Shown here in pieces: positions 8,539 to 60,949 of a stretch of 64,000 nt of DNA. Within the stretch, counting starts at the first letter, position 1, and each line of letters begins with the position of its first letter. The stretch is from Escherichia coli (GTDB lineage: Bacteria; Pseudomonadota; Gammaproteobacteria; Enterobacterales; Enterobacteriaceae): NCBI RefSeq assembly GCF_003790525.1, contig NZ_CP033635.1. One strand, written 5' to 3'. Below the pieces are notes generated by a model that did not search any database, had not been told where the DNA came from, and saw only the letters and a list, made by a program, of their open reading frames with translations. Both the position numbers and the translations under genes were made by a program.

Positions 8539-10818
8539 ATGGATGACCAGTTAAAACAAAGTGCACTTGATTTCCATGAATTTCCAGTTCCAGGGAAAAT
8601 CCAGGTTTCTCCAACCAAGCCTCTGGCAACGCAGCGCGATCTGGCGCTGGCCTACTCACCAGGCGTTGCCGCACCTTGTCTTGAAATCGAAAAAGACCCG
8701 TTAAAAGCCTACAAATATACCGCGCGTGGTAACCTGGTGGCGGTGATCTCTAACGGTACGGCGGTGCTGGGGTTAGGCAACATTGGCGCGCTGGCAGGCA
8801 AACCGGTGATGGAAGGCAAGGGCGTTCTGTTTAAGAAATTCGCCGGGATTGATGTATTTGACATTGAAGTTGATGAACTCGACCCGGACAAATTTATTGA
8901 AGTCGTCGCCGCGCTTGAACCGACCTTCGGCGGCATCAACCTCGAAGACATTAAAGCGCCAGAATGTTTCTATATTGAACAGAAACTGCGCGAGCGGATG
9001 AATATTCCAGTATTCCACGACGATCAGCACGGCACGGCAATTATCAGCACTGCCGCCATCCTCAACGGATTGCGCGTGGTGGAGAAAAACATCTCCGACG
9101 TGCGGATGGTGGTTTCCGGCGCGGGTGCAGCAGCAATTGCCTGTATGAACCTGCTGGTGGCGCTGGGGCTGCAAAAACATAACATCGTGGTTTGTGATTC
9201 AAAAGGCGTTATCTATCAGGGCCGTGAGCCAAATATGGCGGAAACCAAAGCCGCATATGCGGTGGTGGATGACGGCAAACGTACCCTCGATGATGTGATT
9301 GAAGGTGCGGATATTTTCCTCGGCTGTTCCGGCCCGAAAGTGCTGACCCAGGAAATGGTGAAGAAAATGGCTCGGGCACCAATGATCCTGGCGCTGGCGA
9401 ATCCGGAACCGGAAATTCTGCCGCCGCTGGCGAAAGAAGTGCGTCCGGATGCCATCATCTGTACCGGCCGTTCCGACTACCCGAACCAGGTGAACAACGT
9501 CCTTTGCTTCCCGTTTATCTTCCGTGGCGCGCTGGACGTTGGCGCAACCGCCATCAACGAAGAGATGAAACTGGCGGCAGTACGCGCGATTGCAGAACTG
9601 GCCCATGCGGAACAGAGTGAAGTGGTGGCTTCAGCGTATGGCGATCAGGATCTGAGCTTTGGTCCGGAATACATCATTCCAAAACCGTTTGATCCGCGCT
9701 TGATCGTTAAGATCGCTCCTGCGGTGGCGAAAGCGGCGATGGAGTCGGGCGTGGCGACGCGTCCGATTGCTGATTTCGACGTCTACATCGACAAGCTGAC
9801 GGAGTTCGTTTACAAAACCAACCTGTTTATGAAGCCGATTTTCTCCCAGGCTCGCAAAGCGCCGAAGCGCGTAGTTCTGCCGGAAGGGGAAGAGGCGCGC
9901 GTTCTGCATGCCACTCAGGAATTGGTAACGCTGGGACTGGCGAAACCGATTCTTATTGGTCGTCCGAACGTGATCGAAATGCGCATTCAGAAACTGGGCT
10001 TGCAGATCAAGGCGGGCGTTGATTTTGAGATCGTCAATAACGAATCCGATCCGCGCTTTAAAGAGTACTGGACCGAATACTTCCAGATCATGAAGCGTCG
10101 CGGTGTCACTCAGGAGCAGGCGCAGCGTGCGCTGATCAGTAACCCGACAGTGATCGGCGCGATCATGGTTCAGCGTGGCGAAGCCGATGCAATGATTTGC
10201 GGTACGGTGGGCGATTATCATGAACACTTTAGCGTGGTGAAAAATGTCTTTGGTTATCGCGATGGCGTTCACACCGCAGGTGCCATGAACGCGCTGCTGT
10301 TGCCGAGTGGTAACACCTTTATTGCCGATACCTACGTCAATGATGAGCCTGATGCAGAAGAGCTGGCGGAGATCACCTTGATGGCGGCAGAAACTGTTCG
10401 TCGTTTTGGTATTGAACCGCGTGTGGCTCTGTTGTCGCACTCCAACTTTGGTTCTTCTGACTGCCCGTCGTCGAGCAAAATGCGTCAGGCGCTGGAACTG
10501 GTCAGGGAACGTGCGCCAGAACTGATGATTGATGGTGAAATGCACGGCGATGCAGCGCTGGTGGAAGCGATTCGCAACGACCGTATGCCGGACAGCCCTT
10601 TGAAAGGTTCCGCTAATATTCTGGTGATGCCGAACATGGAAGCTGCCCGCATTAGTTACAACTTACTGCGCGTTTCCAGCTCGGAAGGTGTGACTGTCGG
10701 TCCGGTGCTGATGGGCGTGGCGAAGCCGGTTCACGTGTTAACGCCGATCGCATCGGTACGTCGTATCGTCAACATGGTGGCGCTGGCCGTGGTTGAAGCG
10801 CAAACCCAACCGCTGTAA
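8539..10818 (+). CDS. maeB: NADP-dependent malic enzyme (malic enzyme domain plus PTA-like C-terminal domain)
   Basis: 759-aa ORF; N-terminal malic enzyme, C-terminal phosphotransacetylase-like domain. Confidence 0.92.
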
Positions 10819-10835
10819 TTCTTTTTTAACTCTCA

Positions 10836-10863
10836 CGCTTACCCTGAATATTCAGGGTAAGCG
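10836..10863. terminator. Perfect 28-nt palindrome downstream of maeB (putative terminator/insulator before eut promoter)
   Basis: cgcttaccctgaatattcagggtaagcg is a perfect inverted repeat; only a short T-run follows. Confidence 0.45.
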
Positions 10864-10879
10864 GTTTAGCTGCAATATA

Positions 10880-11110
10880 TTAGTAAAGTTTATTACTGAG
10901 TTTGCGAATAATAAAAAAAACAGTATATAAAATATCTCGATATTATTTTATTTATATTCATGCGTTGCATATGAAAGTTTATGCACCACAGCAAATATCT
11001 CTCCATTCTTAGTGATCTACCTCACCTTTTAAACGCGCTTGCCGAATTTTGTTATTTACTCTGACGAAATATTGTCACGATACACGAAAGTTTTTCACAG
11101 GCGGCGACTC
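10880..11110 (+). promoter_or_regulatory. AT-rich control region upstream of eutS (eut operon promoter region)
   Basis: Strongly AT-rich 230 bp immediately upstream of first eut gene; exact promoter elements not resolved. Confidence 0.35.
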
Positions 11111-11446
11111 ATGGATAAAGAACGCATCATTCAGGAATTTGTGCCCGGTAAACAGGTCACACTGGCGCATCTCATCGCGCATCCCGGCGAGGAACTGGCG
11201 AAGAAAATCGGCGTTCCGGATGCGGGCGCAATTGGCATTATGACGCTAACTCCCGGAGAAACGGCGATGATCGCCGGTGATTTAGCGCTGAAAGCTGCCG
11301 ATGTGCATATCGGTTTTCTCGACCGTTTTAGCGGCGCGCTGGTGATTTATGGCTCGGTGGGTGCAGTAGAAGAAGCGTTATCACAAACCGTCAGTGGTTT
11401 AGGTCGCTTATTAAATTATACGCTTTGTGAAATGACCAAAAGTTAA
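11111..11446 (+). CDS. eutS: Ethanolamine utilisation microcompartment shell protein EutS
   Basis: ORF trimmed to ATG 11111 ([21 protein letters not shown]); BMC-domain protein; first gene of eut cluster. Confidence 0.9.
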
Positions 11447-11458
11447 TACGAGGCATTC

Positions 11459-11938
11459 ATGAAACGAATTGCGTTTGTGGGTACCGTCGGGGCAGGAAAA
11501 ACAACGTTATTTAATGCGTTGCAGGGGAATTATACCCTCGCCAGAAAAACACAGGCCGTGGAATTTAATGATAAGGGCGATATTGATACGCCGGGTGAAT
11601 ATTTTAGCCATCCCCGCTGGTATCACGCCTTAATTACCACGCTACAGGATGTGGACATGCTGATCTATGTCCACGGCGCGAATGACCCGGAAAGTCGGTT
11701 GCCTGCCGGGTTGCTGGATATTGGCGTCAGCAAACGGCAAATCGCCGTCATCAGTAAAACGGACATGCCAGATGCTGACGTCGCCGCAACGCGAAAGTTA
11801 TTGCTTGAGACGGGCTTCGAAGAGCCGATTTTCGAGCTAAACAGCCACGACCCGCAAAGCGTGCAGCAACTGGTGGATTATCTGGCATCTCTCACCAAAC
11901 AGGAGGAAGCAGGTGAAAAAACTCATCACAGCGAATGA
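11459..11938 (+). CDS. eutP: EutP, P-loop GTPase/acetate kinase-like protein
   Basis: 159-aa ORF with Walker A GTVGAGKTT. Confidence 0.9.
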   Translation: MKRIAFVGTVGAGKTTLFNALQGNYTLARKTQAVEFNDKGDIDTPGEYFSHPRWYHALITTLQDVDMLIYVHGANDPESRLPAGLLDIGVSKRQIAVISKTDMPDADVAATRKLLLETGFEEPIFELNSHDPQSVQQLVDYLASLTKQEEAGEKTHHSE

Positions 11939-12614
11939 TATTCGTGAAGCACACGCGCGCGGCGAACTGGCAATGTCCGTGGTTCTGCGCGCCAGCATTA
12001 TTACCCCGGAAGCTCGTGAAGTGGCTGATCTGTTGGGTTTTACCATCACCGAATGTGATGAATCGACTGCGGTAACGACGTCCGTTCCCGCCAGCGTGCC
12101 AGCCGATAAAACCGAAAGCCAGCGCATCCGCGAAACCATCATCGCCCAGCTACCGGAAGGCCAGTTTACCGAAAGCCTGGTCGCGCAGCTGATGGAAAAA
12201 GTGATGAAGGAAAAACAGTCACTGGAGCAGGGTGCAATGCAGCCGAGTTTCAAATCGGTGACCGGCAAAGGCGGCATCAAAGTGATTGATGGCAGCAGCG
12301 TCAAGTTTGGTCGTTTCGATGGCGCGGAACCGCACTGCGTAGGCTTGACTGATCTCGTGACCGGAGACGACGGCAGCAGTATGGCCGCTGGTTTCATGCA
12401 GTGGGAGAACGCCTTCTTTCCGTGGACCCTGAACTACGACGAAATCGACATGGTGCTGGAAGGGGAACTGCATGTTCGCCACGAAGGCGAAACTATGATC
12501 GCCAAAGCGGGCGATGTGATGTTTATCCCGAAAGGCTCCAGTATCGAATTTGGTACGACATCCAGCGTGAAATTCCTGTATGTCGCCTGGCCGGCTAACT
12601 GGCAATCCCTATGA
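11913..12614 (+). CDS. eutQ: EutQ, cupin-domain protein
   Basis: 233-aa ORF, overlaps eutP 3' end by 26 nt; eut synteny. Confidence 0.88.
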   Translation: MKKLITANDIREAHARGELAMSVVLRASIITPEAREVADLLGFTITECDESTAVTTSVPASVPADKTESQRIRETIIAQLPEGQFTESLVAQLMEKVMKEKQSLEQGAMQPSFKSVTGKGGIKVIDGSSVKFGRFDGAEPHCVGLTDLVTGDDGSSMAAGFMQWENAFFPWTLNYDEIDMVLEGELHVRHEGETMIAKAGDVMFIPKGSSIEFGTTSSVKFLYVAWPANWQSL

Positions 12615-13414
12615 AAGATTTCATCACCGAAGCATGGCTAAGAGCGAACCATACGCTCAGCGAAGGCGCAGAGATCCATCTCCCTGCGGACAGTCGCCTG
12701 ACGCCCTCTGCCCGGGAGTTACTGGAAAGCCGCCATCTGCGCATCAAGTTTATTGACGAGCAGGGCCGCCTGTTTGTTGACGATGAACAGCAGCAGCCGC
12801 AGCCCGTTCATGGGCTGACCAGTAGCGATGAACATCCGCAGGCGTGCTGCGAACTGTGCCGCCAGCCGGTGGCAAAAAAGCCGGATACGCTGACTCACCT
12901 GTCGGCGGAAAAAATGGTTGCCAAAAGCGATCCGCGCCTGGCTTTTCGCGCTGTTCTCGACAGCACCATTGCGCTGGCAGTGTGGCTGCAAATTGAACTG
13001 GCGGAACCGTGGCAGCCGTGGCTGGCGGATATCCGTTCGCGTCTTGGCAACATTATGCGTGCCGATGCGCTGGGGGAACCGCTGGCCTGCCAGGCGATTG
13101 TCGGGCTTTCTGACGAAGATCTGCATCGGCTTTCTCACCAGCCGCTGCGTTATCTCGACCACGATCATCTGGTGCCGGAAGCCAGCCACGGGCGCGATGC
13201 GGCGTTGCTAAATCTGCTACGCACCAAAGTGCGGGAAACCGAAACCGTAGCGGCGCAGGTCTTTATCACCCGCAGCTTTGAAGTATTACGCCCGGACATC
13301 TTGCAGGCGCTGAACCGCCTTTCCAGCACGGTCTACGTGATGATGATCCTGAGCGTAACGAAGCAGCCGCTAACGGTGAAGCAGATCCAACAACGACTGG
13401 GGGAAACGCAATGA
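12611..13414 (+). CDS. eutT: EutT, corrinoid adenosyltransferase
   Basis: 267-aa ORF; start overlaps eutQ stop; eut synteny. Confidence 0.88.
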
Positions 13415-14427
13415 TTATTGAACGTTGTCGTGAACTGGCGTTGCGAGCGCCCGCCAGAGTGGTTTTTCCGGATGCGTTAGATCAGCGTGTGCTGAAAGCT
13501 GCGCAATATTTACATCAACAAGGTCTGGCAACGCCCATTCTGGTCGCTAATCCGTTTGAACTTCGTCAGTTTGCGCTCAGTCATGGCGTAGCGATGGACG
13601 GGCTACAGGTGATTGATCCGCATGGCAACCTCGCAATGCGGGAAGAATTTGCTCATCGCTGGCTGGCCCGCGCGGGCGAAAAAACGCCGCCGGATGCGCT
13701 GGAAAAACTCACCGAACCGCTGATGTTCGCCGCCGCAATGGTCAGCGCCGGTAAAGCGGATGTCTGTATCGCGGGCAATCTCTCTTCCACGGCGAATGTG
13801 CTGCGTGCCGGATTACGCATTATTGGCTTGCAGCCAGGCTGTAAAACGCTCTCATCCATTTTCCTGATGCTGCCACAGTACAGCGGTCCGGCGTTGGGTT
13901 TTGCCGATTGCAGCGTGGTGCCACAGCCGACGGCGGCGCAGTTGGCGGATATCGCGCTTGCCAGCGCCGAAACCTGGCGCGCCATCACCGGAGAAGAACC
14001 GCGCGTGGCGATGCTGTCGTTTTCCAGCAACGGTAGTGCCCGTCACCCCTGCGTTGCCAACGTGCAGCAGGCGACAGAAATCGTCCGTGAGCGCGCACCA
14101 AAGCTGGTTGTCGATGGCGAGTTGCAGTTTGACGCCGCCTTCGTGCCGGAAGTGGCGGCGCAAAAAGCGCCTGCCAGCCCGCTACAAGGCAAGGCCAATG
14201 TGATGGTTTTTCCGTCGCTGGAAGCCGGAAATATTGGCTACAAAATCGCACAACGACTTGGCGGATATCGTGCCGTCGGGCCATTGATACAAGGACTTGC
14301 CGCGCCGATGCACGATCTCTCTCGTGGTTGTAGCGTGCAGGAAATTATCGAACTGGCGCTGGTGGCAGCTGTGCCGCGTCAGACAGAAGTGAACCGCGAA
14401 AGCAGTTTACAAACACTGGTTGAATGA
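13411..14427 (+). CDS. eutD: EutD, phosphotransacetylase
   Basis: 338-aa ORF, PTA family; start overlaps eutT stop. Confidence 0.9.
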
Positions 14428-14465
14428 ACGGTCCCGTTCTGGACCCTGATAAAGAGGAAAGCACA

Positions 14466-14759
14466 ATGGAAGCATTAGGAATGATCGAAACCCGGGGCCT
14501 GGTTGCACTGATTGAGGCTTCTGACGCGATGGTTAAAGCTGCGCGCGTCAAGCTGGTTGGTGTTAAGCAGATTGGCGGCGGCCTGTGTACTGCCATGGTT
14601 CGTGGTGATGTTGCAGCCTGTAAAGCCGCGACCGATGCAGGTGCCGCAGCGGCACAGCGTATCGGCGAGCTGGTATCTGTACACGTTATCCCGCGTCCGC
14701 ACGGCGACCTGGAAGAAGTGTTCCCGATCGGCCTGAAAGGCGATAGCAGCAACCTGTAA
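14466..14759 (+). CDS. eutM: EutM, major BMC shell protein
   Basis: ORF trimmed to ATG 14466 ([26 protein letters not shown]) with AAAGAGGAAA RBS; BMC domain. Confidence 0.92.
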
Positions 14760-14865
14760 TCACCCTGTGTGACGTCGATTCGGGCGTCACGCTCTCTCCT
14801 TTTTCATTTTACCTTCTGCGGAGGGTAGGGGGAGCTTTTACCTGAAATACGCCACGGAGGCGGGT

Positions 14866-15153
14866 ATGAAACTGGCAGTCGTCACTGGACAAATTGTTTG
14901 TACCGTACGCCATCACGGACTGGCGCATGACAAATTGCTGATGGTGGAAATGATTGATCCACAAGGTAATCCTGACGGGCAATGCGCTGTCGCCATCGAC
15001 AATATTGGCGCGGGAACCGGGGAGTGGGTGTTGCTGGTGAGTGGCAGTTCCGCCCGCCAGGCGCATAAAAGCGAAACGTCACCGGTCGATCTGTGCGTGA
15101 TTGGCATCGTCGATGAGGTGGTGTCTGGCGGTCAGGTCATTTTCCACAAATAA
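14866..15153 (+). CDS. eutN: EutN, BMC vertex (pentamer-type) shell protein
   Basis: 95-aa ORF, EutN/CcmL-like. Confidence 0.9.
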   Translation: MKLAVVTGQIVCTVRHHGLAHDKLLMVEMIDPQGNPDGQCAVAIDNIGAGTGEWVLLVSGSSARQAHKSETSPVDLCVIGIVDEVVSGGQVIFHK

Positions 15154-15164
15154 GGCAGAACATC

Positions 15165-16568
15165 ATGAATCAACAGGATATTGAACAGGTGGTGAAAGCG
15201 GTACTGCTGAAAATGCAAAGCAGTGACACGCCGCCCGCCGCCGTTCATGAGATGGGCGTTTTCGCGTCCCTGGATGACGCCGTTGCGGCAGCCAAAGTCG
15301 CCCAGCAAGGGTTAAAAAGCGTGGCAATGCGCCAGTTAGCCATTGCTGCCATTCGTGAGGCAGGCGAAAAACACGCCAGAGATTTAGCGGAACTTGCCGT
15401 CAGTGAAACCGGCATGGGGCGCGTTGAAGATAAATTTGCCAAAAACGTCGCTCAGGCGCGCGGCACACCAGGCGTTGAGTGCCTCTCACCACAGGTGCTG
15501 ACCGGTGACAACGGCCTGACCCTGATTGAAAACGCGCCCTGGGGCGTGGTGGCTTCGGTGACGCCTTCCACTAACCCGGCGGCAACCGTAATTAACAACG
15601 CCATCAGCCTGATTGCCGCGGGCAACAGCGTCATTTTTGCCCCGCATCCGGCGGCGAAAAAAGTCTCCCAGCGGGCGATTACGCTGCTCAACCAGGCGAT
15701 TGTTGCCGCAGGCGGGCCGGAAAACTTACTGGTTACTGTGGCCAATCCGGATATCGAAACCGCGCAACGTTTGTTCAAGTTCCCGGGTATCGGCCTGCTG
15801 GTGGTGACCGGCGGCGAAGCGGTAGTGGAAGCGGCGCGTAAACACACCAATAAACGTCTGATTGCCGCAGGCGCTGGCAACCCGCCGGTAGTGGTGGATG
15901 AAACCGCCGACCTCGCCCGTGCTGCTCAGTCCATCGTCAAAGGCGCGTCTTTCGATAACAACATCATTTGTGCCGACGAAAAGGTACTGATTGTTGTTGA
16001 TAGCGTAGCCGATGAACTGATGCGTCTGATGGAAGGCCAGCATGCGGTGAAACTGACCGCAGAGCAGGCGCAGCAACTGCAATCGGTGTTGCTGAAAAAT
16101 ATCGACGAGTGCGGAAAAGGCACCGTCAGCCGTGACTGGGTTGGTCGCGATGCGGCGAAAATCGCGGCGGCAATCGGCCTTAAAGTTCCGGAACAAACGC
16201 GACTGCTGTTTGTAGAAACCACCGCAGAACATCCGTTTGCCGTGACCGAACTGATGATGCCGGTGCTGCCCGTCGTGCGCGTCGCCAACGTGGCGGATGC
16301 CATTGCGCTGGCGGTGAAACTGGAAGGCGGTTGCCACCACACGGCGGCAATGCACTCGCGCAATATCGAGAACATGAACCAGATGGCGAATGCCATTGAT
16401 ACCAGCATTTTCGTTAAGAACGGACCGTGCATTGCCGGGCTGGGGCTGGGCGGGGAAGGCTGGACCACCATGACCATCACCACGCCAACCGGTGAAGGGG
16501 TAACCAGCGCGCGGACGTTTGTCCGTCTGCGTCGCTGTGTATTAGTCGATGCGTTTCGCATTGTTTAA
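15165..16568 (+). CDS. eutE: EutE, CoA-acylating acetaldehyde dehydrogenase
   Basis: 467-aa ORF; aldehyde dehydrogenase family; eut synteny. Confidence 0.92.
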   Translation: MNQQDIEQVVKAVLLKMQSSDTPPAAVHEMGVFASLDDAVAAAKVAQQGLKSVAMRQLAIAAIREAGEKHARDLAELAVSETGMGRVEDKFAKNVAQARGTPGVECLSPQVLTGDNGLTLIENAPWGVVASVTPSTNPAATVINNAISLIAAGNSVIFAPHPAAKKVSQRAITLLNQAIVAAGGPENLLVTVANPDIETAQRLFKFPGIGLLVVTGGEAVVEAARKHTNKRLIAAGAGNPPVVVDETADLARAAQSIVKGASFDNNIICADEKVLIVVDSVADELMRLMEGQHAVKLTAEQAQQLQSVLLKNIDECGKGTVSRDWVGRDAAKIAAAIGLKVPEQTRLLFVETTAEHPFAVTELMMPVLPVVRVANVADAIALAVKLEGGCHHTAAMHSRNIENMNQMANAIDTSIFVKNGPCIAGLGLGGEGWTTMTITTPTGEGVTSARTFVRLRRCVLVDAFRIV

Positions 16569-16578
16569 GGAGTAACCG

Positions 16579-17415
16579 ATGGCGCACGATGAACAATGGC
16601 TCACCCCACGTCTGCAAACGGCGGCAACGCTGTGTAACCAGACGCCCGCCGCGACGGAATCTCCGCTGTGGCTGGGGGTGGATCTGGGCACCTGCGATGT
16701 GGTGTCGATGGTTGTCGACCGCGACGGTCTGCCGGTGGCGGTATGCCTCGACTGGGCCGATGTGGTCCGCGACGGCATCGTCTGGGATTTCTTCGGTGCG
16801 GTCACCATTGTTCGTCGCCATCTCGACACCCTCGAGCAGCAATTCGGTCGCCGTTTTAGCCATGCGGCGACCTCTTTTCCTCCAGGTACGGACCCGCGTA
16901 TTTCCATCAACGTGCTGGAGTCTGCCGGACTGGAAGTGAGCCATGTACTGGATGAGCCAACCGCAGTCGCGGATCTGCTGCAACTGGACAACGCCGGTGT
17001 AGTGGATATCGGCGGTGGCACTACTGGTATTGCCATCGTGAAAAAGGGCAAGGTGACGTACTCGGCGGATGAAGCGACCGGCGGACATCACATCTCTCTG
17101 ACTCTCGCCGGAAATCGTCGTATTTCGCTGGAAGAGGCAGAGCAGTACAAGCGCGGTCACGGTGAAGAGATTTGGCCCGCGGTGAAACCGGTGTACGAAA
17201 AAATGGCGGACATTGTCGCCCGGCATATTGAAGGGCAGGGCATTACGGATTTATGGCTGGCGGGCGGCTCTTGTATGCAACCGGGCGTGGCGGAACTGTT
17301 TCGCAAACAATTTCCGGCGTTACAGGTGCATTTACCGCAGCACAGTTTGTTTATGACCCCGCTGGCGATCGCCAGTAGCGGGCGAGAGAAAGCGGAGGGG
17401 CTATATGCAAAATGA
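16579..17415 (+). CDS. eutJ: EutJ, actin/Hsp70-fold chaperone-like protein
   Basis: 278-aa ORF; eut synteny. Confidence 0.9.
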   Translation: MAHDEQWLTPRLQTAATLCNQTPAATESPLWLGVDLGTCDVVSMVVDRDGLPVAVCLDWADVVRDGIVWDFFGAVTIVRRHLDTLEQQFGRRFSHAATSFPPGTDPRISINVLESAGLEVSHVLDEPTAVADLLQLDNAGVVDIGGGTTGIAIVKKGKVTYSADEATGGHHISLTLAGNRRISLEEAEQYKRGHGEEIWPAVKPVYEKMADIVARHIEGQGITDLWLAGGSCMQPGVAELFRKQFPALQVHLPQHSLFMTPLAIASSGREKAEGLYAK

Positions 17416-18592
17416 ATTGCAGACCGCGCTCTTTCAGGCGTTCGATACCCTGAATCTGCAACGGGTAAAAACATTTAGCGTTCCACCGGTGACGCTTTGC
17501 GGTCCGGGCGCGGTGAGCAGTTGTGGGCAGCAAGCGCAAACGCGTGGGCTGAAACATCTGTTCGTGATGGCAGACAGCTTTTTGCATCAGGCAGGGATGA
17601 CCGCCGGGCTGACACGTAGCCTGGCCGTTAAAGGTATCGCCATGACGCTCTGGCCATGTCCGGTGGGCGAACCATGCATCACCGACGTGTGTGCAGCCGT
17701 GGCGCAGTTGCGTGAATCAGGCTGTGACGGGGTGATTGCGTTTGGCGGCGGCTCGGTGCTGGATGCAGCAAAAGCCGTGGCGTTGCTGGTGACGAACCCG
17801 GATAGCACGCTGGCAGAGATGTCAGAAACCAGCGTTCTGCAACCGCGCCTGCCGTTGATTGCCATTCCGACTACCGCCGGAACCGGCTCTGAAACCACCA
17901 ACGTAACGGTGATTATCGATGCGGTGAGCGGGCGTAAGCAGGTGTTAGCCCATGCCTCGCTGATGCCGGATGTGGCGATTCTCGACGCCGCATTGACCGA
18001 AGGTGTGCCGTCGCATGTCACGGCGATGACTGGCATTGATGCGTTAACCCATGCCATTGAAGCGTACAGCGCGCTGAACGCCACACCATTTACCGACAGC
18101 CTGGCGATTGGCGCCATTGCGATGATTGGTCAATCGCTGCCGAAAGCGGTGGGCTACGGTCACGACCTTGCCGCGCGCGAGAGCATGTTGCTGGCTTCAT
18201 GTATGGCGGGAATGGCGTTTTCCAGTGCGGGGCTTGGGTTGTGCCACGCGATGGCGCATCAGCCAGGGGCGGCGCTGCATATTCCGCACGGTCTGGCGAA
18301 CGCTATGTTGCTGCCAACGGTAATGGAATTTAACCGGATGGTTTGTCGTGATCGGTTTAGTCAGATTGGCCGGGCGCTGAGAACTAAAAAATCCGACGAT
18401 CGTGACGCTATTAACGCGGTAAGTGAGCTGATTGCGGAAGTCGGGATTGGTAAACGACTGGGCGATATTGGTGCGACATCTGCGCATTACGGCGCATGGG
18501 CGCAGGCCGCGCTGGAAGATATTTGTCTGCGCAGCAACCCGCGTACCGCCAGCCTGGAGCAGATTATTGGTCTGTATGCTGCGGCGCAATAA
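17405..18592 (+). CDS. eutG: EutG, iron-containing alcohol dehydrogenase
   Basis: 395-aa ORF; overlaps eutJ by 11 nt. Confidence 0.9.
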   Translation: MQNELQTALFQAFDTLNLQRVKTFSVPPVTLCGPGAVSSCGQQAQTRGLKHLFVMADSFLHQAGMTAGLTRSLAVKGIAMTLWPCPVGEPCITDVCAAVAQLRESGCDGVIAFGGGSVLDAAKAVALLVTNPDSTLAEMSETSVLQPRLPLIAIPTTAGTGSETTNVTVIIDAVSGRKQVLAHASLMPDVAILDAALTEGVPSHVTAMTGIDALTHAIEAYSALNATPFTDSLAIGAIAMIGQSLPKAVGYGHDLAARESMLLASCMAGMAFSSAGLGLCHAMAHQPGAALHIPHGLANAMLLPTVMEFNRMVCRDRFSQIGRALRTKKSDDRDAINAVSELIAEVGIGKRLGDIGATSAHYGAWAQAALEDICLRSNPRTASLEQIIGLYAAAQ

Positions 18593-18607
18593 AAGTGTAC
18601 GGACAGT

Positions 18608-18707
18608 CCCCTCGCCCCTTTGGGGAGAGGGTTAGGGTGAGGGGAACAGAGTCGCTCCGGTGCAAACAATTACCCTCACCCCGGTCCCTCGGCTTCCAGA
18701 GTGAGGG
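18608..18707. repeat. GC-rich intergenic repeat (boxC-like), copy 2, with additional inverted partial copy
   Basis: cccctcgcccctttggggagagggttagggtgaggggaaca matches copy at 5214-5268; downstream ccctcacccc is the inverse of gggtgagggg, so a long hairpin is possible; lies between eutG and eutH. Confidence 0.5.
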
Positions 18708-18761
18708 AAAAACCCACTTTCAGCATTGGCAATAAATAACAACTAACAGGGAGTAAAGGCG

Positions 18762-19988
18762 ATGGGAATTAACGAAATCATCATGTACATCATGATGTTC
18801 TTTATGCTGATAGCTGCCGTAGACAGGATCCTGTCGCAGTTCGGCGGTTCTGCTCGTTTCCTCGGTAAGTTCGGTAAAAGTATCGAAGGATCCGGCAGTC
18901 AGTTCGAAGAAGGCTTTATGGCAATGGGCGCTTTGGGCCTGGCGATGGTTGGTATGACCGCGCTGGCACCTGTTCTGGCCCACGTACTCGGACCGGTGAT
19001 TATCCCGGTTTACGAAATGCTCGGCGCAAACCCGTCAATGTTCGCCGGAACACTGCTGGCGTGCGATATGGGCGGCTTCTTCCTCGCCAAAGAGTTGGCG
19101 GGCGGCGACGTAGCAGCGTGGCTATACTCTGGATTAATTCTCGGGTCGATGATGGGGCCAACGATTGTGTTTTCCATTCCGGTGGCGCTCGGCATTATCG
19201 AACCTTCTGACCGTCGTTATCTGGCGCTCGGCGTGCTGGCGGGCATTGTGACCATTCCGATTGGCTGTATTGCCGGTGGTCTGGTGGCTATGTACTCCGG
19301 TGTGCAGATCAACGGTCAGCCAGTGGAATTCACCTTTGCGCTGATCCTGATGAACATGATCCCGGTACTTATCGTTGCGGTGCTGGTGGCGCTGGGGCTG
19401 AAATTCATCCCGGAAAAAATGATCAACGGCTTCCAGATCTTCGCCAAATTCCTCGTTGCATTGATCACCCTCGGTCTTGCCGCTGCGGTAGTGAAATTCC
19501 TCCTTGGCTGGGAACTGATCCCGGGCCTTGATCCTATCTTTATGGCCCCTGGCGATAAACCCGGTGAAGTGATGCGCGCCATTGAAGTTATCGGCTCGAT
19601 CTCCTGCGTTCTGTTAGGGGCGTATCCGATGGTGCTGCTGCTGACTCGCTGGTTTGAAAAACCGCTGATGAGTGTCGGTAAGGTGCTGAATATGAACAAT
19701 ATAGCGGCAGCCGGCATGGTGGCAACGCTTGCCAACAACATCCCGATGTTTGGCATGATGAAGCAGATGGATACCCGCGGCAAAGTCATCAACTGTGCCT
19801 TCGCCGTTTCCGCTGCTTTCGCCCTGGGCGACCATTTAGGCTTCGCGGCTGCCAACATGAACGCCATGATCTTCCCGATGATTGTCGGCAAGCTGATCGG
19901 CGGCGTCACGGCGATTGGCGTGGCGATGATGCTGGTACCTAAAGAAGACGCGAGCGCGGCTAAAACCGAAGCGGAGGCGCAATCGTGA
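18762..19988 (+). CDS. eutH: EutH, ethanolamine permease/facilitator
   Basis: 408-aa polytopic membrane protein (MGINEIIMYIMMFFMLIAAV). Confidence 0.9.
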   Translation: MGINEIIMYIMMFFMLIAAVDRILSQFGGSARFLGKFGKSIEGSGSQFEEGFMAMGALGLAMVGMTALAPVLAHVLGPVIIPVYEMLGANPSMFAGTLLACDMGGFFLAKELAGGDVAAWLYSGLILGSMMGPTIVFSIPVALGIIEPSDRRYLALGVLAGIVTIPIGCIAGGLVAMYSGVQINGQPVEFTFALILMNMIPVLIVAVLVALGLKFIPEKMINGFQIFAKFLVALITLGLAAAVVKFLLGWELIPGLDPIFMAPGDKPGEVMRAIEVIGSISCVLLGAYPMVLLLTRWFEKPLMSVGKVLNMNNIAAAGMVATLANNIPMFGMMKQMDTRGKVINCAFAVSAAFALGDHLGFAAANMNAMIFPMIVGKLIGGVTAIGVAMMLVPKEDASAAKTEAEAQS

Positions 19989-21388
19989 ACACTCGCCAGC
20001 TACTGAGCGTCGGTATCGATATCGGCACCACCACCACCCAGGTGATTTTCTCCCACCTGGAGCTGGTTAACCGTGCGGCGGTGTCGCAGGTGCCGCGCTA
20101 CGAATTCATCAAACGCGAAATTAGCTGGCAAAGCCCGGTGTTCTTTACCCCTGTCGATAAACAGGGTGGTTTAAAAGAAGCGGAACTGAAAACCTTAATC
20201 CTGGATCAATATCAGGCTGCGGGCATTGCGCCGGAAAGTGTTGATTCTGGTGCCATCATCATCACCGGTGAAAGCGCGAAAACCCGCAACGCTCGCCCGG
20301 CGGTGATGACGCTCTCCCAGTCGCTGGGCGATTTTGTCGTCGCCAGCGCCGGGCCGCATCTCGAATCCGTGATCGCCGGTCACGGTGCCGGGGCGCAAAC
20401 TCTTTCTGAACAACGGCTGTGTCGGGTACTGAATATCGATATCGGCGGTGGCACTGCGAACTACGCCCTGTTCGATGCCGGAAAAATCAGCGGCACCGCC
20501 TGCCTCAACGTCGGCGGTCGCCTGCTGGAAACCGACAGCCAGGGGCGCGTGGTTTACGCTCATAAACCGGGGCAGATGATTGTGGATGAGTGCTTCGGCG
20601 CAGGCACTGACGCCCGTTCGCTGACCGGCGCGCAGCTGGTGCAGGTTACCCGCCGGATGGCAGAGCTGATTGTCGAAGTGATTGACGGAACGCTTTCGCC
20701 GCTCGCGCAGGCATTGATGCAAACCGGTTTGCTGCCCGTAGGTGTTACGCCCGAAATCATTACGCTTTCTGGCGGCGTTGGCGAATGTTATCGCCACCAG
20801 CCCGCCGACCCGTTCTGTTTTGCCGATATTGGCCCGCTTCTGGCAACGGCGCTGCATGACCATCCGCGCCTGCGTGAGATGAACGTGCAGTTTCCGGCGC
20901 AAACCGTGCGCGCCACGGTGATTGGCGCGGGTGCACATACCCTTTCGCTCTCTGGCAGCACAATCTGGCTGGAGGGCGTACAACTGCCGCTGCGCAACTT
21001 GCCGGTGGCGATCCCAATTGATGAAAAGGATCTGGTGAGTGCCTGGCAACAGGCGCTGATTCAGCTGGATCTTGATCCTAAAACTGACGCGTACGTGCTG
21101 GCGCTTCCCGCCTCGCTGCCTGTGCGTTACGCCGCGGTACTGACGGTCATCAACGCGTTGGTCGATTTCGTCGCGCGTTTTCCGAATCCGCATCCCCTGC
21201 TGGTGGTGGCCGGGCAGGACTTTGGTAAAGCTCTGGGCATGTTGTTGCGCCCACAGCTACAACAACTCCCGTTGGCAGTCATTGACGAAGTGATTGTCCG
21301 CGCGGGGGACTATATCGACATTGGTACGCCTCTTTTTGGCGGATCGGTTGTGCCGGTGACGGTGAAATCACTCGCATTTCCTTCCTGA
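19985..21388 (+). CDS. eutA: EutA, ethanolamine ammonia-lyase reactivase
   Basis: 467-aa ORF; start overlaps eutH stop. Confidence 0.9.
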   Translation: MNTRQLLSVGIDIGTTTTQVIFSHLELVNRAAVSQVPRYEFIKREISWQSPVFFTPVDKQGGLKEAELKTLILDQYQAAGIAPESVDSGAIIITGESAKTRNARPAVMTLSQSLGDFVVASAGPHLESVIAGHGAGAQTLSEQRLCRVLNIDIGGGTANYALFDAGKISGTACLNVGGRLLETDSQGRVVYAHKPGQMIVDECFGAGTDARSLTGAQLVQVTRRMAELIVEVIDGTLSPLAQALMQTGLLPVGVTPEIITLSGGVGECYRHQPADPFCFADIGPLLATALHDHPRLREMNVQFPAQTVRATVIGAGAHTLSLSGSTIWLEGVQLPLRNLPVAIPIDEKDLVSAWQQALIQLDLDPKTDAYVLALPASLPVRYAAVLTVINALVDFVARFPNPHPLLVVAGQDFGKALGMLLRPQLQQLPLAVIDEVIVRAGDYIDIGTPLFGGSVVPVTVKSLAFPS

Positions 21389-21399
21389 GGGAACGACTT

Positions 21400-22761
21400 A
21401 TGAAACTAAAGACCACATTGTTCGGCAATGTATATCAGTTTAAGGATGTAAAAGAGGTGCTGGCTAAAGCCAACGAACTGCGTTCGGGGGATGTGCTGGC
21501 GGGCGTTGCTGCGGCAAGCTCACAGGAGCGCGTGGCGGCAAAGCAGGTGTTGTCGGAAATGACCGTAGCGGACATCCGCAATAATCCGGTGATTGCCTAT
21601 GAAGATGACTGCGTGACGCGGCTGATTCAGGACGATGTTAACGAAACGGCCTACAACCAGATTAAAAACTGGAGCATCAGCGAACTGCGTGAGTATGTGC
21701 TGAGCGATGAAACCAGCGTGGACGACATTGCCTTTACCCGCAAAGGGCTGACCTCGGAAGTGGTAGCGGCGGTAGCGAAGATTTGCTCCAACGCGGACCT
21801 GATCTACGGCGCGAAGAAAATGCCGGTGATCAAAAAGGCCAATACCACCATCGGTATTCCGGGCACCTTTAGCGCCCGCTTGCAGCCAAACGATACCCGT
21901 GACGATGTGCAAAGTATCGCCGCGCAAATCTACGAAGGGCTTTCCTTCGGGGTGGGCGATGCGGTGATCGGCGTTAACCCGGTGACTGACGACGTGGAAA
22001 ACTTAAGCCGCGTGTTGGATACCATCTATGGCGTGATCGACAAATTCAACATCCCAACTCAGGGCTGCGTACTGGCGCACGTCACCACCCAGATCGAAGC
22101 GATTCGTCGCGGCGCACCGGGCGGGCTGATTTTCCAGAGTATTTGCGGCAGCGAAAAAGGGCTGAAAGAGTTTGGCGTGGAGCTGGCGATGCTCGACGAA
22201 GCGCGCGCAGTGGGTGCAGAGTTTAACCGTATCGCCGGGGAAAACTGCCTCTACTTCGAAACCGGACAAGGTTCGGCGCTGTCCGCTGGCGCTAACTTCG
22301 GCGCTGACCAGGTGACGATGGAAGCGCGTAACTATGGGCTGGCGCGTCATTACGATCCGTTTATCGTCAACACCGTGGTCGGTTTTATTGGGCCGGAGTA
22401 TCTCTACAACGACCGCCAGATTATCCGCGCGGGCTTAGAAGATCACTTTATGGGCAAGCTGAGCGGCATCTCTATGGGCTGTGACTGCTGCTACACCAAC
22501 CACGCTGACGCTGACCAGAACCTCAACGAAAACCTGATGATCCTGCTCGCCACCGCAGGCTGTAACTACATCATGGGGATGCCGCTGGGTGATGACATCA
22601 TGCTCAACTACCAGACTACGGCCTTCCACGACACCGCCACTGTGCGTCAGTTACTCAACCTGCGCCCGTCACCGGAGTTTGAACGCTGGCTGGAAAGCAT
22701 GGGCATTATGGCAAACGGTCGCCTGACCAAACGGGCGGGCGATCCGTCACTGTTCTTCTGA
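21400..22761 (+). CDS. eutB: EutB, ethanolamine ammonia-lyase large subunit
   Basis: 453-aa ORF; 11 bp after eutA. Confidence 0.92.
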   Translation: MKLKTTLFGNVYQFKDVKEVLAKANELRSGDVLAGVAAASSQERVAAKQVLSEMTVADIRNNPVIAYEDDCVTRLIQDDVNETAYNQIKNWSISELREYVLSDETSVDDIAFTRKGLTSEVVAAVAKICSNADLIYGAKKMPVIKKANTTIGIPGTFSARLQPNDTRDDVQSIAAQIYEGLSFGVGDAVIGVNPVTDDVENLSRVLDTIYGVIDKFNIPTQGCVLAHVTTQIEAIRRGAPGGLIFQSICGSEKGLKEFGVELAMLDEARAVGAEFNRIAGENCLYFETGQGSALSAGANFGADQVTMEARNYGLARHYDPFIVNTVVGFIGPEYLYNDRQIIRAGLEDHFMGKLSGISMGCDCCYTNHADADQNLNENLMILLATAGCNYIMGMPLGDDIMLNYQTTAFHDTATVRQLLNLRPSPEFERWLESMGIMANGRLTKRAGDPSLFF

Positions 22762-22781
22762 TGACGCGGAGATAACACATC

Positions 22782-23669
22782 ATGGATCAAAAACAGATTG
22801 AAGAAATTGTACGCAGCGTGATGGCGTCAATGGGACAAGCGGCCCCCGCGCCGTCAGAAGCAAAGTGCGCCACCACCACCTGTACGACACCAGTGACCTC
22901 GGAAAGCTGCGCGCTGGATTTAGGTTCTGCGGAAGCAAAAGCGTGGATTGGTGTGGAAAACCCGCATCGCGCAGACGTATTAACAGAACTGCGTCGCAGC
23001 ACCGTGGCCCGCGTTTGTACCGGTCGTGCCGGTCCGCGTCCGCGTACCCAGGCGTTGCTGCGTTTCCTGGCCGATCACTCTCGTTCGAAAGATACCGTAC
23101 TGAAAGAAGTGCCGGAAGAGTGGGTGAAAGCGCAGGGCTTGCTGGAAGTCCGCTCTGAAATTAGCGACAAAAATCTCTACCTGACTCGTCCGGATATGGG
23201 CCGCCGCCTGTGTGCAGAAGCTGTTGAAGCGCTGAAAGCGCAGTGTGTTGCCAATCCGGACGTGCAGGTCGTTATTTCTGATGGCCTGTCAACTGATGCG
23301 ATCACCGTGAACTACGAAGAGATCCTGCCACCGCTGATGGCGGGCCTGAAACAGGCCGGGCTGAAAGTCGGTACGCCATTCTTTGTTCGTTATGGTCGCG
23401 TGAAGATTGAAGATCAGATCGGTGAGATCCTCGGCGCGAAAGTGGTGATCCTGCTGGTGGGGGAACGCCCGGGATTAGGGCAGTCAGAAAGCCTCTCCTG
23501 CTACGCCGTTTACTCGCCGCGTATTGCAACCACCGTTGAGGCCGATCGTACCTGTATCTCTAACATTCACCAGGGCGGCACGCCGCCGGTTGAAGCCGCA
23601 GCCGTCATTGTGGATTTGGCGAAACGTATGCTGGAGCAGAAAGCATCCGGCATCAACATGACCCGATAA
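22782..23669 (+). CDS. eutC: EutC, ethanolamine ammonia-lyase small subunit
   Basis: 295-aa ORF following eutB. Confidence 0.92.
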
Positions 23670-23678
23670 GGAGGCATC

Positions 23679-24338
23679 ATGCCAGCTTTAGATTTGATTC
23701 GACCGTCGGTAACCGCCATGCGGGTGATTGCCTCCGTTAACGCCGAATTTGCACGTGAACTGAAATTGCCGCCGCATATTCGTAGCCTCGGGCTGATTTC
23801 TGCTGATTCAGATGACGTCACCTACATTGCGGCTGACGAAGCGACCAAGCAGGCGATGGTCGAAGTGGTATATGGTCGCTCGCTGTATGCGGGCGCTGCA
23901 CACGGCCCGTCACCGACTGCCGGTGAGGTGCTGATTATGCTGGGTGGGCCAAACCCGGCGGAAGTGCGTGCTGGTCTGGATGCGATGGTTGCGCATATTG
24001 AAAATGGCGCTGCTTTCCAGTGGGCTAATGACGCAGAAAATACAGCCTTCCTGGCACATGTCGTTTCGCGTACCGGTTCTTATCTCTCATCAACCGCCGG
24101 GATCACGCCTGGCGATCCGATGGCGTATCTGGTGGCACCGCCGCTGGAAGCGACCTACGGCATTGATGCAGCGTTGAAATCTGCCGACGTGCAGCTGGTG
24201 ACCTATGTCCCGCCACCGTCTGAAACCAACTACTCGGCAGCATTTTTAACCGGTAGCCAGGCCGCGTGTAAAGCAGCCTGTAACGCCTTTACCGATGCAG
24301 TGCTGGAAATCGCGCGTAATCCAATCCAGCGTGCGTAA
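23679..24338 (+). CDS. eutL: EutL, tandem-BMC-domain shell protein
   Basis: 219-aa ORF; eut synteny. Confidence 0.9.
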
Positions 24339-24350
24339 CGGAGGTTGCCG

Positions 24351-24851
24351 ATGATCAATGCACTGGGATTGCTGGAAGTGGACGGCATGGTCGCCGCGAT
24401 AGATGCAGCTGATGCCATACTCAAAGCAGCTAACGTTCGTCTGCTCAGTCATGAAGTGCTTGACCCTGGTCGCCTAACGCTGGTGGTGGAAGGCGATCTG
24501 GCGGCGTGTCGTGCGGCGCTGGACGCAGGTTGTGCTGCCGCGATGCGTACCGGGCGTGTCATCAGCCGTAAGGAGATCGGTCGGCCAGACGATGACACCC
24601 AGTGGCTGGTTACTGGCTTTAACCGCCAGCCGAAGCAACCCGTAAAGGAACCCGACGCGCCAGTTATCGTCGCGGAATCTGCTGACGAGTTGTTGGCGCT
24701 GTTAACATCAGTACGTCAGGGAATGACGGCAGGAGAAGTGGCTGCCCACTTTGGCTGGCCGCTGGAAAAAGCCAGAAATGCGCTCGAACAGCTCTTTTCT
24801 GCCGGGACGTTACGTAAACGCAGTAGTCGTTACCGTCTCAAGCCCCATTAA
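24351..24851 (+). CDS. eutK: EutK, BMC shell protein with C-terminal helix-turn-helix-like tail
   Basis: ORF-track start is a TTG at 24345; ATG at 24351 (MINALGLLEVDG) has AACGGAGG RBS 6 nt upstream. Confidence 0.88.
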   Translation: MINALGLLEVDGMVAAIDAADAILKAANVRLLSHEVLDPGRLTLVVEGDLAACRAALDAGCAAAMRTGRVISRKEIGRPDDDTQWLVTGFNRQPKQPVKEPDAPVIVAESADELLALLTSVRQGMTAGEVAAHFGWPLEKARNALEQLFSAGTLRKRSSRYRLKPH

Positions 24852-24896
24852 CCTGTCGGAGGTGCCGGGTGTCCTACAACACCCGGCATTAACATC

Positions 24897-25949
24897 ATGA
24901 AAAAGACCCGTACAGCCAATTTGCACCATCTTTATCATGAACCCTTACCCGAAAACCTGAAGCTCACGCCGAAGGTCGAAGTGGATAATGTTCATCAACG
25001 ACAGACAACGGATGTCTATGAACATGCTTTGACAATTACCGCCTGGCAGCAGATTTACGATCAGCTGCATCCGGGCAAGTTTCATGGTGAATTTACGGAA
25101 ATTCTACTCGATGATATTCAGGTTTTTCGTGAATACACTGGTCTGGCGCTGCGTCAGTCGTGCCTGGTCTGGCCGAACTCGTTCTGGTTTGGCATTCCGG
25201 CGACGCGCGGTGAGCAGGGATTTATCGGTTCGCAATGTCTGGGAAGCGCAGAAATTGCGACGCGCCCGGGTGGAACCGAGTTTGAATTAAGTACGCCGGA
25301 CGATTACACGATCCTGGGCGTAGTGCTTTCTGAAGATGTCATCACTCGTCAGGCTAACTTTTTGCATAATCCGGATCGGGTATTACATATGCTGCGTAGC
25401 CAGTCGGCGTTGGAAGTGAAAGAGCAGCATAAAGCCGCGCTGTGGGGCTTTGTCCAACAGGCGCTGGCGACATTTTGCGAGAACCCGGAAAATCTTCATC
25501 AGCCTGCTGTGCGTAAAGTGCTGGGGGATAATTTGCTCATGGCGATGGGGGCGATGCTGGAAGAAGCGCAGCCAATGGTGACGGCGGAAAGCATCAGTCA
25601 TCAGAGTTACCGTCGATTGCTTTCCCGCGCCCGTGAATATGTGCTGGAAAACATGTCTGAACCGGTAACGGTGTTGGAGTTGTGCAATCAATTGCATGTC
25701 AGCCGCCGCACGCTACAAAACGCGTTTCACGCTATTTTAGGCATTGGCCCAAACGCGTGGCTGAAACGCATTCGCCTGAACGCCGTACGCCGCGAACTGA
25801 TAAGCCCGTGGTCGCAAAGCACAACGGTAAAAGACGCCGCCATGCAGTGGGGATTCTGGCATCTGGGGCAATTTGCCACGGATTACCAGCAGCTGTTTGC
25901 CGAGAAGCCGTCACTGACGCTGCATCAGCGGATGCGGGAGTGGGGGTGA
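24897..25949 (+). CDS. eutR: EutR, AraC-family activator of the eut operon
   Basis: 350-aa ORF with C-terminal AraC-type HTH; last gene of cluster. Confidence 0.9.
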
Positions 25950-25954
25950 GGGAG

Positions 25955-26857
<903 letters not shown>

Positions 26858-42423: not shown

Positions 42424-43849
42424 TAATGCCAGTCAGTTAAGCAACTGACTGGCTCTTTTTCGGGGCTGTGGGGTATTTCCAGGGCCTCTCCTTTACCACT
42501 CTCGGGAAGGCCCTTTCCCTTCTTGTCGGTAATTTCACAAGTTGTCCCATACTTGCAAGATCGCGCATCAGCTCCGGTATACGTCCCGGTGAAGCGCCCT
42601 GCAATGTCATCAGCATTCTCATCACCATTCCACATGATTCTGAGAAACTCAGTTGATTCGGCCAGTAACCTTTCAGATGTTCCGCCATTTTAATCATCTG
42701 ATATCTCACCAGATTATAAGCCAGTAAGACACCCCACAGCTCTTGCTCCACAAGCTCCGGTTTTTTACTTCTCAGCGTCAGCCTGCTCAGTTGCATCGTC
42801 TGTTTTATCTCCCTGTATCCCAGTTCGATTTCCCAGCGATGACTGTACAGATCCGCCATTTCTCCTCCGGGGAAGCGCATGGCGTCCGTCATCGACGTCA
42901 GCAGATGGCAGACTTTTCCTTTGCGCGTCACGGTCAGCAGGCGGGCTGTCACTTCATTTCCCAGTCCCGGCCACTTTTTTCGTGCCTGCGGGCTGGTTTT
43001 CAGCTTCACCAGATGATCGCCTTTACCCAGTTTTCTGATCTCTTCATATTGCGCTCCCTTTCTGAGAGGTATCATCCAGTGGCGGTGTTCTCCCGCCAGG
43101 CTCCAGGCATTTAACAGTCCCAGTGAGTAATAACCTTTATCCATTAACGTCAGAGTGTTATCGCCGGTTTGTTCTATAAGTTGCTCAGCAAGCTCATTTT
43201 CGCTGTTCTTCATCGTGCCGAAGGCTGCAGCCGTCAGCAGATGGCTGGTCAGTTCCATCTGGCAGACCATTTTGACCTGCGGGTAGAGCGCCGGGTTCCC
43301 GGCATGTGTCTGGCGGGGGAAGGCTGCATCGTTCTCTGGTGTATCCGGTGTGCGCCAGAACACACCATCGATGGCCAGCAGGGTCAGGCCGCACCAGTGC
43401 GGATGCGGCGTGGCGTTATGCCAGAGCTGCGCTGTTTTCGTGAACACGCGGCGGACAGCCTCACTTCCCAGGCGCTGGCGGGCCTGAATAACGGCACTGG
43501 GGGCAACGAAGGGGCGATTGCCCGGCAGCATGATGTCCAGGCGATTCACAATCTGGTGAAGAGGTTCTTTACGCTCAAGCGCCATGCCAACAATACACCA
43601 GACCATCATTTCGAGGGGAAGACGGCGCTTGCGTAGCGTTACAGTACCTGATTCGGCAAGGCAACGAGAGATGAGTTCGGGGTCGAGGTAATCCCCCAGA
43701 GAAGTCAGTGGGTTACGCAGAGAATCGTAACGGGATACCAGATCAAGAGCCTGTCCAATGTGCATAAAAAAATCCGGAAACAAGTGAGCGTTTCCGGATT
43801 CTTACACAGCCACTGGATCGGTCAACTGATCCTTAACTGATCGGCATTA
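42424..43849 (-). mobile_element. Insertion sequence IS4 (1426 bp), intact
   Basis: Terminal 18-bp inverted repeats taatgccagtcagttaag / cttaactgatcggcatta (16 of 18 match), single transposase ORF, 12-bp direct repeats. Confidence 0.92.
42437..43765 (-). CDS. insG: IS4 transposase (DDE family)
   Basis: 442-aa ORF from ATG 43763-43765 ([16 protein letters not shown]) inside the IS4 inverted repeats. Confidence 0.9.
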
Positions 43850-58757: not shown

Positions 58758-58833
58758 TGGTGGGTCGTGCAGGATTCGAACCTGCGACCAATTGATTAAA
58801 AGTCAACTGCTCTACCAACTGAGCTAACGACCC
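58758..58833 (-). tRNA. lysV: tRNA-Lys (anticodon UUU)
   Basis: Reverse complement is a 76-nt cloverleaf ending CCA with anticodon loop CUUUUAA. Confidence 0.95.
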
Positions 58834-58837
58834 GAAG

Positions 58838-58913
58838 TGGTGGGTGATGACGGGATCGAACCGCCGACCCCCTCCTTGTAAGGGAGGTGCTCTCCCAGCT
58901 GAGCTAATCACCC
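58838..58913 (-). tRNA. valY: tRNA-Val (anticodon UAC)
   Basis: 76-nt tRNA, reverse complement GGGTGATTAGCTCAGCTGGGAGAGCACCTCCCTTACAAGGAGG...CACCCACCA. Confidence 0.95.
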
Positions 58914-58959
58914 ACTTCGGTACTTCACATTTTTACAAGAAATTTAGCTGGCGAGAAAG

Positions 58960-59035
58960 TGGTGGGTGATGACGGGATCGAACCGCCGACCCCCTCCTTG
59001 TAAGGGAGGTGCTCTCCCAGCTGAGCTAATCACCC
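58960..59035 (-). tRNA. valX: tRNA-Val (anticodon UAC)
   Basis: Identical copy of the tRNA-Val sequence. Confidence 0.95.
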
Positions 59036-59079
59036 ACTTCTCAATTTCTTGCTACACGGCGGAGACTACATAAAGTAGT

Positions 59080-59155
59080 TGGTGGGTGATGACGGGATCG
59101 AACCGCCGACCCCCTCCTTGTAAGGGAGGTGCTCTCCCAGCTGAGCTAATCACCC
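59080..59155 (-). tRNA. valU: tRNA-Val (anticodon UAC)
   Basis: Identical copy of the tRNA-Val sequence; first gene of the operon. Confidence 0.95.
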
Positions 59156-60880: not shown

Positions 60881-60949
60881 TATCCGGTGCGCCGTAAAAC
60901 CCCGTCCTTCAGGGCGGGGATATAAGGCGCGGTTTTCCACCTGACCAGG

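Follow-up and report, generated by a model that had tools for sequence, protein, structure and literature searches.

Gene content and layout of the eut operon

The window, by which we mean the whole stretch of 64,000 nucleotides of Escherichia coli DNA that was analysed, carries a complete eut operon on its + strand. Seventeen co-oriented open frames, none of which contains an internal stop, span positions 11111–25949. The operon, the frames at its two ends and the two genes that flank the junction discussed below are located as follows.

11111–25949, + strand: complete eut operon, eutS-P-Q-T-D-M-N-E-J-G-H-A-B-C-L-K-R (from frames, lengths and NCBIfam matches)
11111–11446, + strand: eutS (open frame)
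19985–21388, + strand: eutA, ethanolamine ammonia-lyase reactivase, 467 aa, GTG start, TGA stop (NCBIfam model NF007991)
21400–22761, + strand: eutB, ethanolamine ammonia-lyase large subunit, 453 aa (NCBIfam model NF011649)
24897–25949, + strand: eutR (open frame)

Sixteen of the 17 products gave end-to-end matches to NCBIfam models (Eut or phosphotransacetylase models) above the curated cut-offs. The eutA product was matched by NF007991 with 1070 bits over residues 1–467 of 467, and the eutB product by NF011649 with 664.7 bits. The remaining gene, eutK, was identified by position, length and identity; it measures 501 nt, as do the annotated eutK genes of K-12 and of E. coli SMS-3-5. Over the operon, the window matches the annotated SMS-3-5 locus with 100% identity, and the EutB protein of that annotation is WP_000769961.1. 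The signature proteins of an EUT1 locus are all full length (EutBC, the reactivase EutA, the shell proteins EutS, EutM, EutN, EutL and EutK, and the regulator EutR, with EutK judged by length), and the gene set and order of the enterobacterial 17-gene eut operon (EUT1 microcompartment locus) were found on one strand. This was in agreement with the original prediction, made from the letters of the window, that all 17 eut genes are present, co-oriented and full length. The same prediction held that start and stop codons often overlap, and five such overlaps of 4–26 nt were counted (eutP/eutQ, 26 nt; eutQ/eutT, 4 nt; eutT/eutD, 4 nt; eutJ/eutG, 11 nt; and eutH/eutA, 4 nt).

The 17-gene eut operon of Salmonella and E. 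coli is attributed to Kofoid et al. 1999, as cited in PMC7617246. In Salmonella enterica and E. coli, this operon has the order eutSPQTDMNEJGHABCLKR and an 11-nt eutA-eutB spacer, both of which are present in the window. Comparison with Salmonella enterica eut revealed no structural difference, and the nucleotide identity from eutH to eutB is 86.9%.

The eutA-eutB junction and its attachment-site core

The junction between eutA and eutB reads ...tttccttccTGAgggaacgacttATGaaa... in the window. Positions 21380–21402 correspond to cct tcc TGA gggaacgactt ATG, in which the TGA at 21386–21388 is the stop codon of eutA and the ATG at 21400–21402 is the start codon of eutB. Three short elements can be distinguished at this junction.

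21381–21388, + strand: CTTCCTGA, 8-bp attachment-site core in a single copy (unoccupied attB), from comparison with occupied strains
21387–21392, + strand: GAGGGA, Shine-Dalgarno-like sequence for eutB that overlaps the eutA stop, read from the sequence
21389–21399, + strand: eutA-eutB spacer GGGAACGACTT, 11 bp, by direct reading and equal to the string quoted in the original prediction

The core CTTCCTGA covers the last eutA codons together with the stop codon and is followed directly by GGGAACGACTT and the eutB ATG. The GAGGGA motif at 21387–21392 would work as the ribosome-binding site of eutB. The claim that eutA and eutB are 11 bp apart with no prophage between them was thus borne out by the spacer at 21389–21399. 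No integrase or island genes lie in the 11-bp gap between eutA and eutB, and a tblastn search with IntZ found no homologue anywhere in the 64-kb window. No terminator-like or promoter-like site was found on the + strand at the spacer (sigma-70 promoter scan of 10700–26200). Terminator-like sites are not enriched across the same interval, with 21 found and 16.8 ± 3.9 expected. A sigma-54 –24/–12 motif considered in 21320–21345 by eye was rejected on account of its unfit spacing.

In K-12 strain MG1655 (NC_000913.3), the 'cryptic prophage CPZ-55' is annotated at 2558691–2565480 (6,790 bp). It sits between eutB (b2441) and eutA (b2451), exactly where the original prediction had placed it, with intZ and yffL–yffS oriented antisense to eut. 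Alignment to MG1655 showed that its junction is not contiguous, as the prediction requires. In K-12, CPZ-55 is bounded by direct repeats of CTTCCTGA, of which the window has one copy, at 21381–21388. Aligned to the window, and with a slash at the break, the left junction of K-12 reads ...ATTTCCTTCCTGA/ATGCGG... and the right junction reads ...CATCGATTCTTCCTGA/GGGAACGACTTATG, so that the junction in the window equals the left and right flanks of K-12 joined across one copy of the core. An 8-bp duplication, 5'-TCAGGAAG-3', located just past the eutA stop has been reported for CPZ-55 (PMC6379469), and the duplication as published agrees with the CTTCCTGA repeat found here. The eut loci of K-12 strains MG1655 and BW25113 therefore share the flanking genes, the 8-bp core and the spacer sequence with the window but differ from it by 6,790 bp (intZ, yffL–yffS) between the eutA stop and the spacer, where the window has 0.

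CPZ-55 brings along an imperfect version of the target end, CATCGATTCTTCCTGA, so that neither the stop codon of eutA nor the ribosome-binding site of eutB is lost when the element is in place. This arrangement is similar to that of e14 at icd (PMC6379469), in which the crossover also falls at the 3' end of a conserved coding sequence and the frame is preserved. Unlike the e14 target, however, the target of CPZ-55 sits within an operon, and insertion is therefore polar on seven downstream genes with no reading frame broken. When the nine CPZ-55 proteins were compared with PHROGs, only IntZ (integrase) and YffO (small terminase-like) were recognised, and a degraded satellite-like element would fit this content. 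A literature search on integration by IntZ, or on CPZ-55 as a satellite, returned nothing relevant.

Elements other than CPZ-55 were also found at this position. Strain BMH-17-0027 carries a different island of 13 kb with an intZ homologue, and CTTCCTGA is duplicated at both of its ends. The identical junctions of two different islands suggest that CTTCCTGA is the sequence recombined by the IntZ-type integrase. Strain TB354 contains an 11.4-kb island with intZ, gadC, murI and IS elements, and its pta (eutD) and eutR are annotated as pseudogenes; MDK9L1 contains an island remnant without intZ, and most of its eutB is deleted; in strain 102651, which has an island with intZ, IS903B-associated rearrangements truncate eutA and eutB. 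Judged from these sequences, the eutA-eutB site is a recurrent integration target. Two side observations were made in the occupied strains. They show secondary decay of eut genes (in TB354, pta has an internal stop and eutR is frameshifted), and gadC, murI and a decarboxylase remnant recur as cargo in two of the islands of TB354, MDK9L1 and 102651.

Taken with the data on frequency and ancestry given below, we regard the 11-bp spacer as the native, unoccupied state of the attachment site for IntZ-type tyrosine-integrase islands, a family of which CPZ-55 is the most familiar member, with a probability of about 0.95.

Sequence conservation across the junction

Loci from other species were collected in two ways. 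A degenerate pattern for the first 17 eutB codons was used as an outgroup search and retrieved 32 species representatives (Citrobacter spp., Salmonella enterica subsp. arizonae, Klebsiella spp., Pluralibacter, Pseudocitrobacter and several Escherichia species), and five extra loci, including those of Salmonella enterica and Intestinirhabdus, were retrieved independently via EutA relatives with 77–90% amino-acid identity. An alignment of 18 eutA-eutB sequences, with pairwise identities to the window of 84–98%, contained a nearly nucleotide-invariant block that surrounds the attachment site, and a small hairpin is predicted within it.

21308–21422, + strand: nearly nucleotide-invariant block comprising the last 27 eutA codons, the spacer and the first 7–8 eutB codons (18-sequence alignment)
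21377–21393, + strand: predicted 7-bp hairpin, UUUCCUU (21377–21383) paired with GAGGGAA (21387–21393), loop CCU (minimum-free-energy folds)

The longest invariant runs in the 18-sequence alignment are 41 nt (21344–21384) and 37 nt (21386–21422), with a further run of 24 nt (21308–21331). Over the whole of eutA, 17.6% of third-codon positions are invariant, compared with 23 of the last 26 (binomial P = 6.6e-15). Among the non-Escherichia loci, the most conserved 60-nt window of 14631–25949 is 21351–21410, with a value of 0.994 against a mean of 0.835 (sd 0.056), and most of the next-best 60-nt windows in the surveyed interval also lie at gene starts or ends. In a Salmonella enterica contig, eutA has 83.9% nucleotide identity, yet the last 81 nt and the spacer are 100% identical. 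Loci with 74–80% identity in eutA show 85–98% over the last 81 nt and the spacer, and every one of them retains TTTCCTTCCTGAGGGAACGA without change. Among E. coli records, 5,079 reach 99% identity or more over the 120-bp junction, versus 106 over the surrounding 1 kb.

One explanation for this block, which we hold to be possible but put at clearly below even odds, is that ~21308–21422 acts in cis, as an RNA or translation element, to determine EutB(C) output, with a hairpin that would sequester the Shine-Dalgarno sequence until ribosomes that finish eutA open it. The near-invariance extends across genera (Escherichia, Salmonella, Citrobacter, Klebsiella and relatives) and includes synonymous sites; in the predicted hairpin at 21377–21393, the final codons of eutA pair with the Shine-Dalgarno sequence of eutB, which makes it a candidate translational-coupling structure; and the location of the other top conserved windows mostly at gene starts and ends fits a constraint on translation initiation. 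On the other side, the hairpin columns are invariant and thus give no covariation support, folding of 21300–21430 gave no greater stability than shuffled sequences for either strand (z values of –0.46 and +0.53), and Rfam returned no family at 21150–21550 with E≤10 and, at gathering scores, only six tRNAs in the whole window. In addition, 21400–21449 was partly fixed by the search pattern in 27 of 32 non-Escherichia loci. Moreover, the conserved ~90 nt upstream are longer than a ribosome-binding region usually needs, and another cause is possible. Constraint on the translation-initiation or coupling region is the most likely cause of the conservation, but it is put forward tentatively.

Slightly more doubtful, and in our estimate unlikely, is the broader proposal that the ~115-nt block is a functional cis element setting ethanolamine ammonia-lyase output, invariant like tRNA genes, that IntZ-type islands adopted. 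Under this proposal, the islands may use eutA-eutB as attB because the block is invariant across their host genera. The conservation of the block is the only element of this analysis that possibly adds something new: it suggests a translational control point for EutBC and also a rationale for the target choice of the integrase. An antisense 49-codon frame with a TTG start at 21279–21428 was considered and rejected, as its preservation follows automatically from the invariance of the block and nothing else supports it.

Frequency of the empty site and its ancestry

Of 5,426 complete E. coli genomes, 4,964 have a contiguous junction by a 1,001-bp query and 4,962 by a 120-bp query (~91%). The complete CPZ-55 element occurs in 213 genomes; all of those listed are 100% identical, and most bear names of K-12 or laboratory strains. 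Approximately 200 further genomes match CPZ-55 in part, in most of the listed matches through the intZ end alone, with 80–90% identity. For uropathogenic E. coli, Dadswell et al. 2019 (PMC6652756) described the site as a 'prophage insertion hot spot' and found 1 of 47 strains occupied at eutA-eutB by a different prophage. The hot spot of that study (PMC6652756) is the same site, its 1 in 47 matches the ~8–9% occupancy found here, and the window is an unoccupied example.

In all 32 species representatives, the EutA-like C-terminus ends 11 nt before the eutB ATG. The 11-nt spacer was also found in the five loci anchored on EutA (5/5), which gives 37 of 37 loci from other species. As the spacer is empty in all sampled outgroups, the uninterrupted state is ancestral and the insertions are derived. 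The description of the junction as the unoccupied and ancestral arrangement therefore stands, with a contiguous junction in ~91% of E. coli genomes and in 37/37 outgroup loci. For this locus, the empty eutA-eutB site is the normal condition; it is the majority state, it is ancestral, and it has been published before.

It could be argued that the site in this lineage was once occupied and that the island was then excised precisely, so that the junction is a restored attB. Varied IntZ-type islands occur here in scattered E. coli lineages, K-12 sublines have cleanly lost CPZ-55, and excision mediated by the integrase is scarless; the sequence itself cannot discriminate between a history without occupation and one with excision. 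Parsimony speaks against such a detour, given that ~91% of E. coli and all sampled outgroups are unoccupied, and the best 25 operon matches listed are all uninterrupted at ~100% identity. We consider a restored attB quite improbable and a site that was native and unoccupied throughout the far better explanation.

Strain background

All 64 kb of the window align at 100% identity and without a gap to positions 2607217–2671216 of SMS-3-5 (NC_010498.1, reverse complement), an O19:H34 strain of phylogroup F and ST354 that was isolated from water (PMC11537424). A 15.2-kb operon query was 100% identical to SMS-3-5 and to a small group of other genomes, and only 26 of the 5,435 matching records reached at least 99%. 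Identity of the eut region is 96.1–96.9% to MG1655 and 96.5% to NEB5-alpha. The near-identity of the backbone to MG1655 that would mark the K-12 lineage was not seen (96.1–96.9%, versus 100% to SMS-3-5). From these identities, the window is evidently the chromosome of E. coli SMS-3-5 or an identical strain, and not that of K-12. Strain AR_0077, which is 100% identical over a 1-kb junction query, was rejected as the source because its identity over 33 kb is only 98.56%.

The original prediction had taken the empty site as a sign of a non-K-12 background or of the ancestral arrangement. The background is indeed not K-12, as judged by the 96.1–96.9% identity to MG1655. Absence of the prophage is by itself undiagnostic because NEB5-alpha, XL1-Blue and one laboratory's W3110 also are without CPZ-55. 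In NEB5-alpha, a K-12 derivative that does not carry CPZ-55, the junction is 100% identical to that of the window over 120 bp. XL1-Blue has been reported to be without CPZ-55 (PMC11148124), and the W3110 stock of one laboratory is without CPZ-55 and eut+ (PMC11334477). The K-12 lineage is thus polymorphic for CPZ-55, and an assembly labelled 'K-12' (NZ_CM170063.1) is also uninterrupted. That the window itself comes from a K-12-lineage strain in which CPZ-55 was lost by precise excision (as in DH5-alpha/NEB5-alpha, XL1-Blue and some W3110 stocks) can be set aside as extremely improbable: although this very junction is found in K-12 derivatives (NEB5-alpha, XL1-Blue, W3110), the eut region is just 96.1–96.9% identical to MG1655 and 96.5% to NEB5-alpha, and the 64 kb equal SMS-3-5 at 100%, including an IS4 copy and an IS200/IS605 remnant.

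Probable consequences for expression of the operon

With nothing inserted at the junction, eutB–eutR stay directly downstream of eutS–eutA on the same strand, and the putative eutB ribosome-binding site overlaps the eutA stop codon. Since eutB–eutR follow eutS–eutA without interruption, the operon can be expressed as one polycistronic unit from an inducible upstream promoter. Transcription of this particular copy as a single unit is probable on the strength of published experiments in other strains, and not from this sequence. In the model for Salmonella and Nissle, an inducible promoter PI lies upstream of eutS and a weak constitutive promoter PII serves eutR (PMC7617246). In BW25113, which has CPZ-55, ethanolamine induces eutS and eutR but not eutB, and no microcompartments are formed (PMC7617246); in Nissle 1917, in which the operon is uninterrupted, the genes are induced, compartments are formed and the strain grows on ethanolamine (PMC7617246). 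Ethanolamine does not serve BW25113 as a nitrogen source (PMC11334477), and scarless removal of CPZ-55 restores its growth to the level of the eut+ W3110 (PMC11334477). By analogy with these strains, the intact eut operon is presumably functional in SMS-3-5 or an identical strain. Published work already covers where CPZ-55 sits, the duplicated 8 bp, the status of the site as a hot spot and what the insertion does to the phenotype. The K-12 reference is the exception in this respect and has already misled metabolic models (PMC7617246).

Two intergenic regions within the operon are of note. Of the terminator-like hairpins that the operon has on the + strand, the strongest is found between eutM and eutN (14767–14792), with a 10-bp stem that includes 6 GC pairs and a T-rich tail. 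Situated just past the major shell gene eutM, this hairpin could dampen read-through or lend stability to the mRNA upstream of it. The region between eutG and eutH (18593–18761) is a 169-bp gap with GC-rich imperfect palindromes (ccctcgcccctttggggagagggttagggtgagggg...), which we take to resemble boxC-type intergenic repeats. The corresponding gap in K-12 is 216 bp rather than 169 bp, and the K-12 alignment breaks there. These repeats may explain why the 15-kb operon query matched a median of 7 places per genome. With the hairpin at 14767–14792 and the repeat-containing eutG-eutH gap, transcript levels therefore need not be uniform along the operon. A search of the literature for an internal promoter near eutA/eutB found nothing relevant.

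Other features of the window

Outside the operon, the window contains two insertions relative to AR_0077. The first, of 1,426 bp at 42424–43849 between crr and pdxK, is an IS4 family transposase according to the SMS-3-5 annotation. The second, of ~1.75 kb at 60884–62632 between yfeD and gltX, is a decayed IS200/IS605 element, in which the SMS-3-5 annotation records a frameshifted tnpB (InsQ/TnpB) and tnpA as pseudogenes. Two ordinary tRNA clusters are also present, with identities taken from the SMS-3-5 annotation: four tRNAs (Lys and three Val) on the – strand at 58761–59155, and two tRNAs (Ala) on the + strand at 63603–63790.
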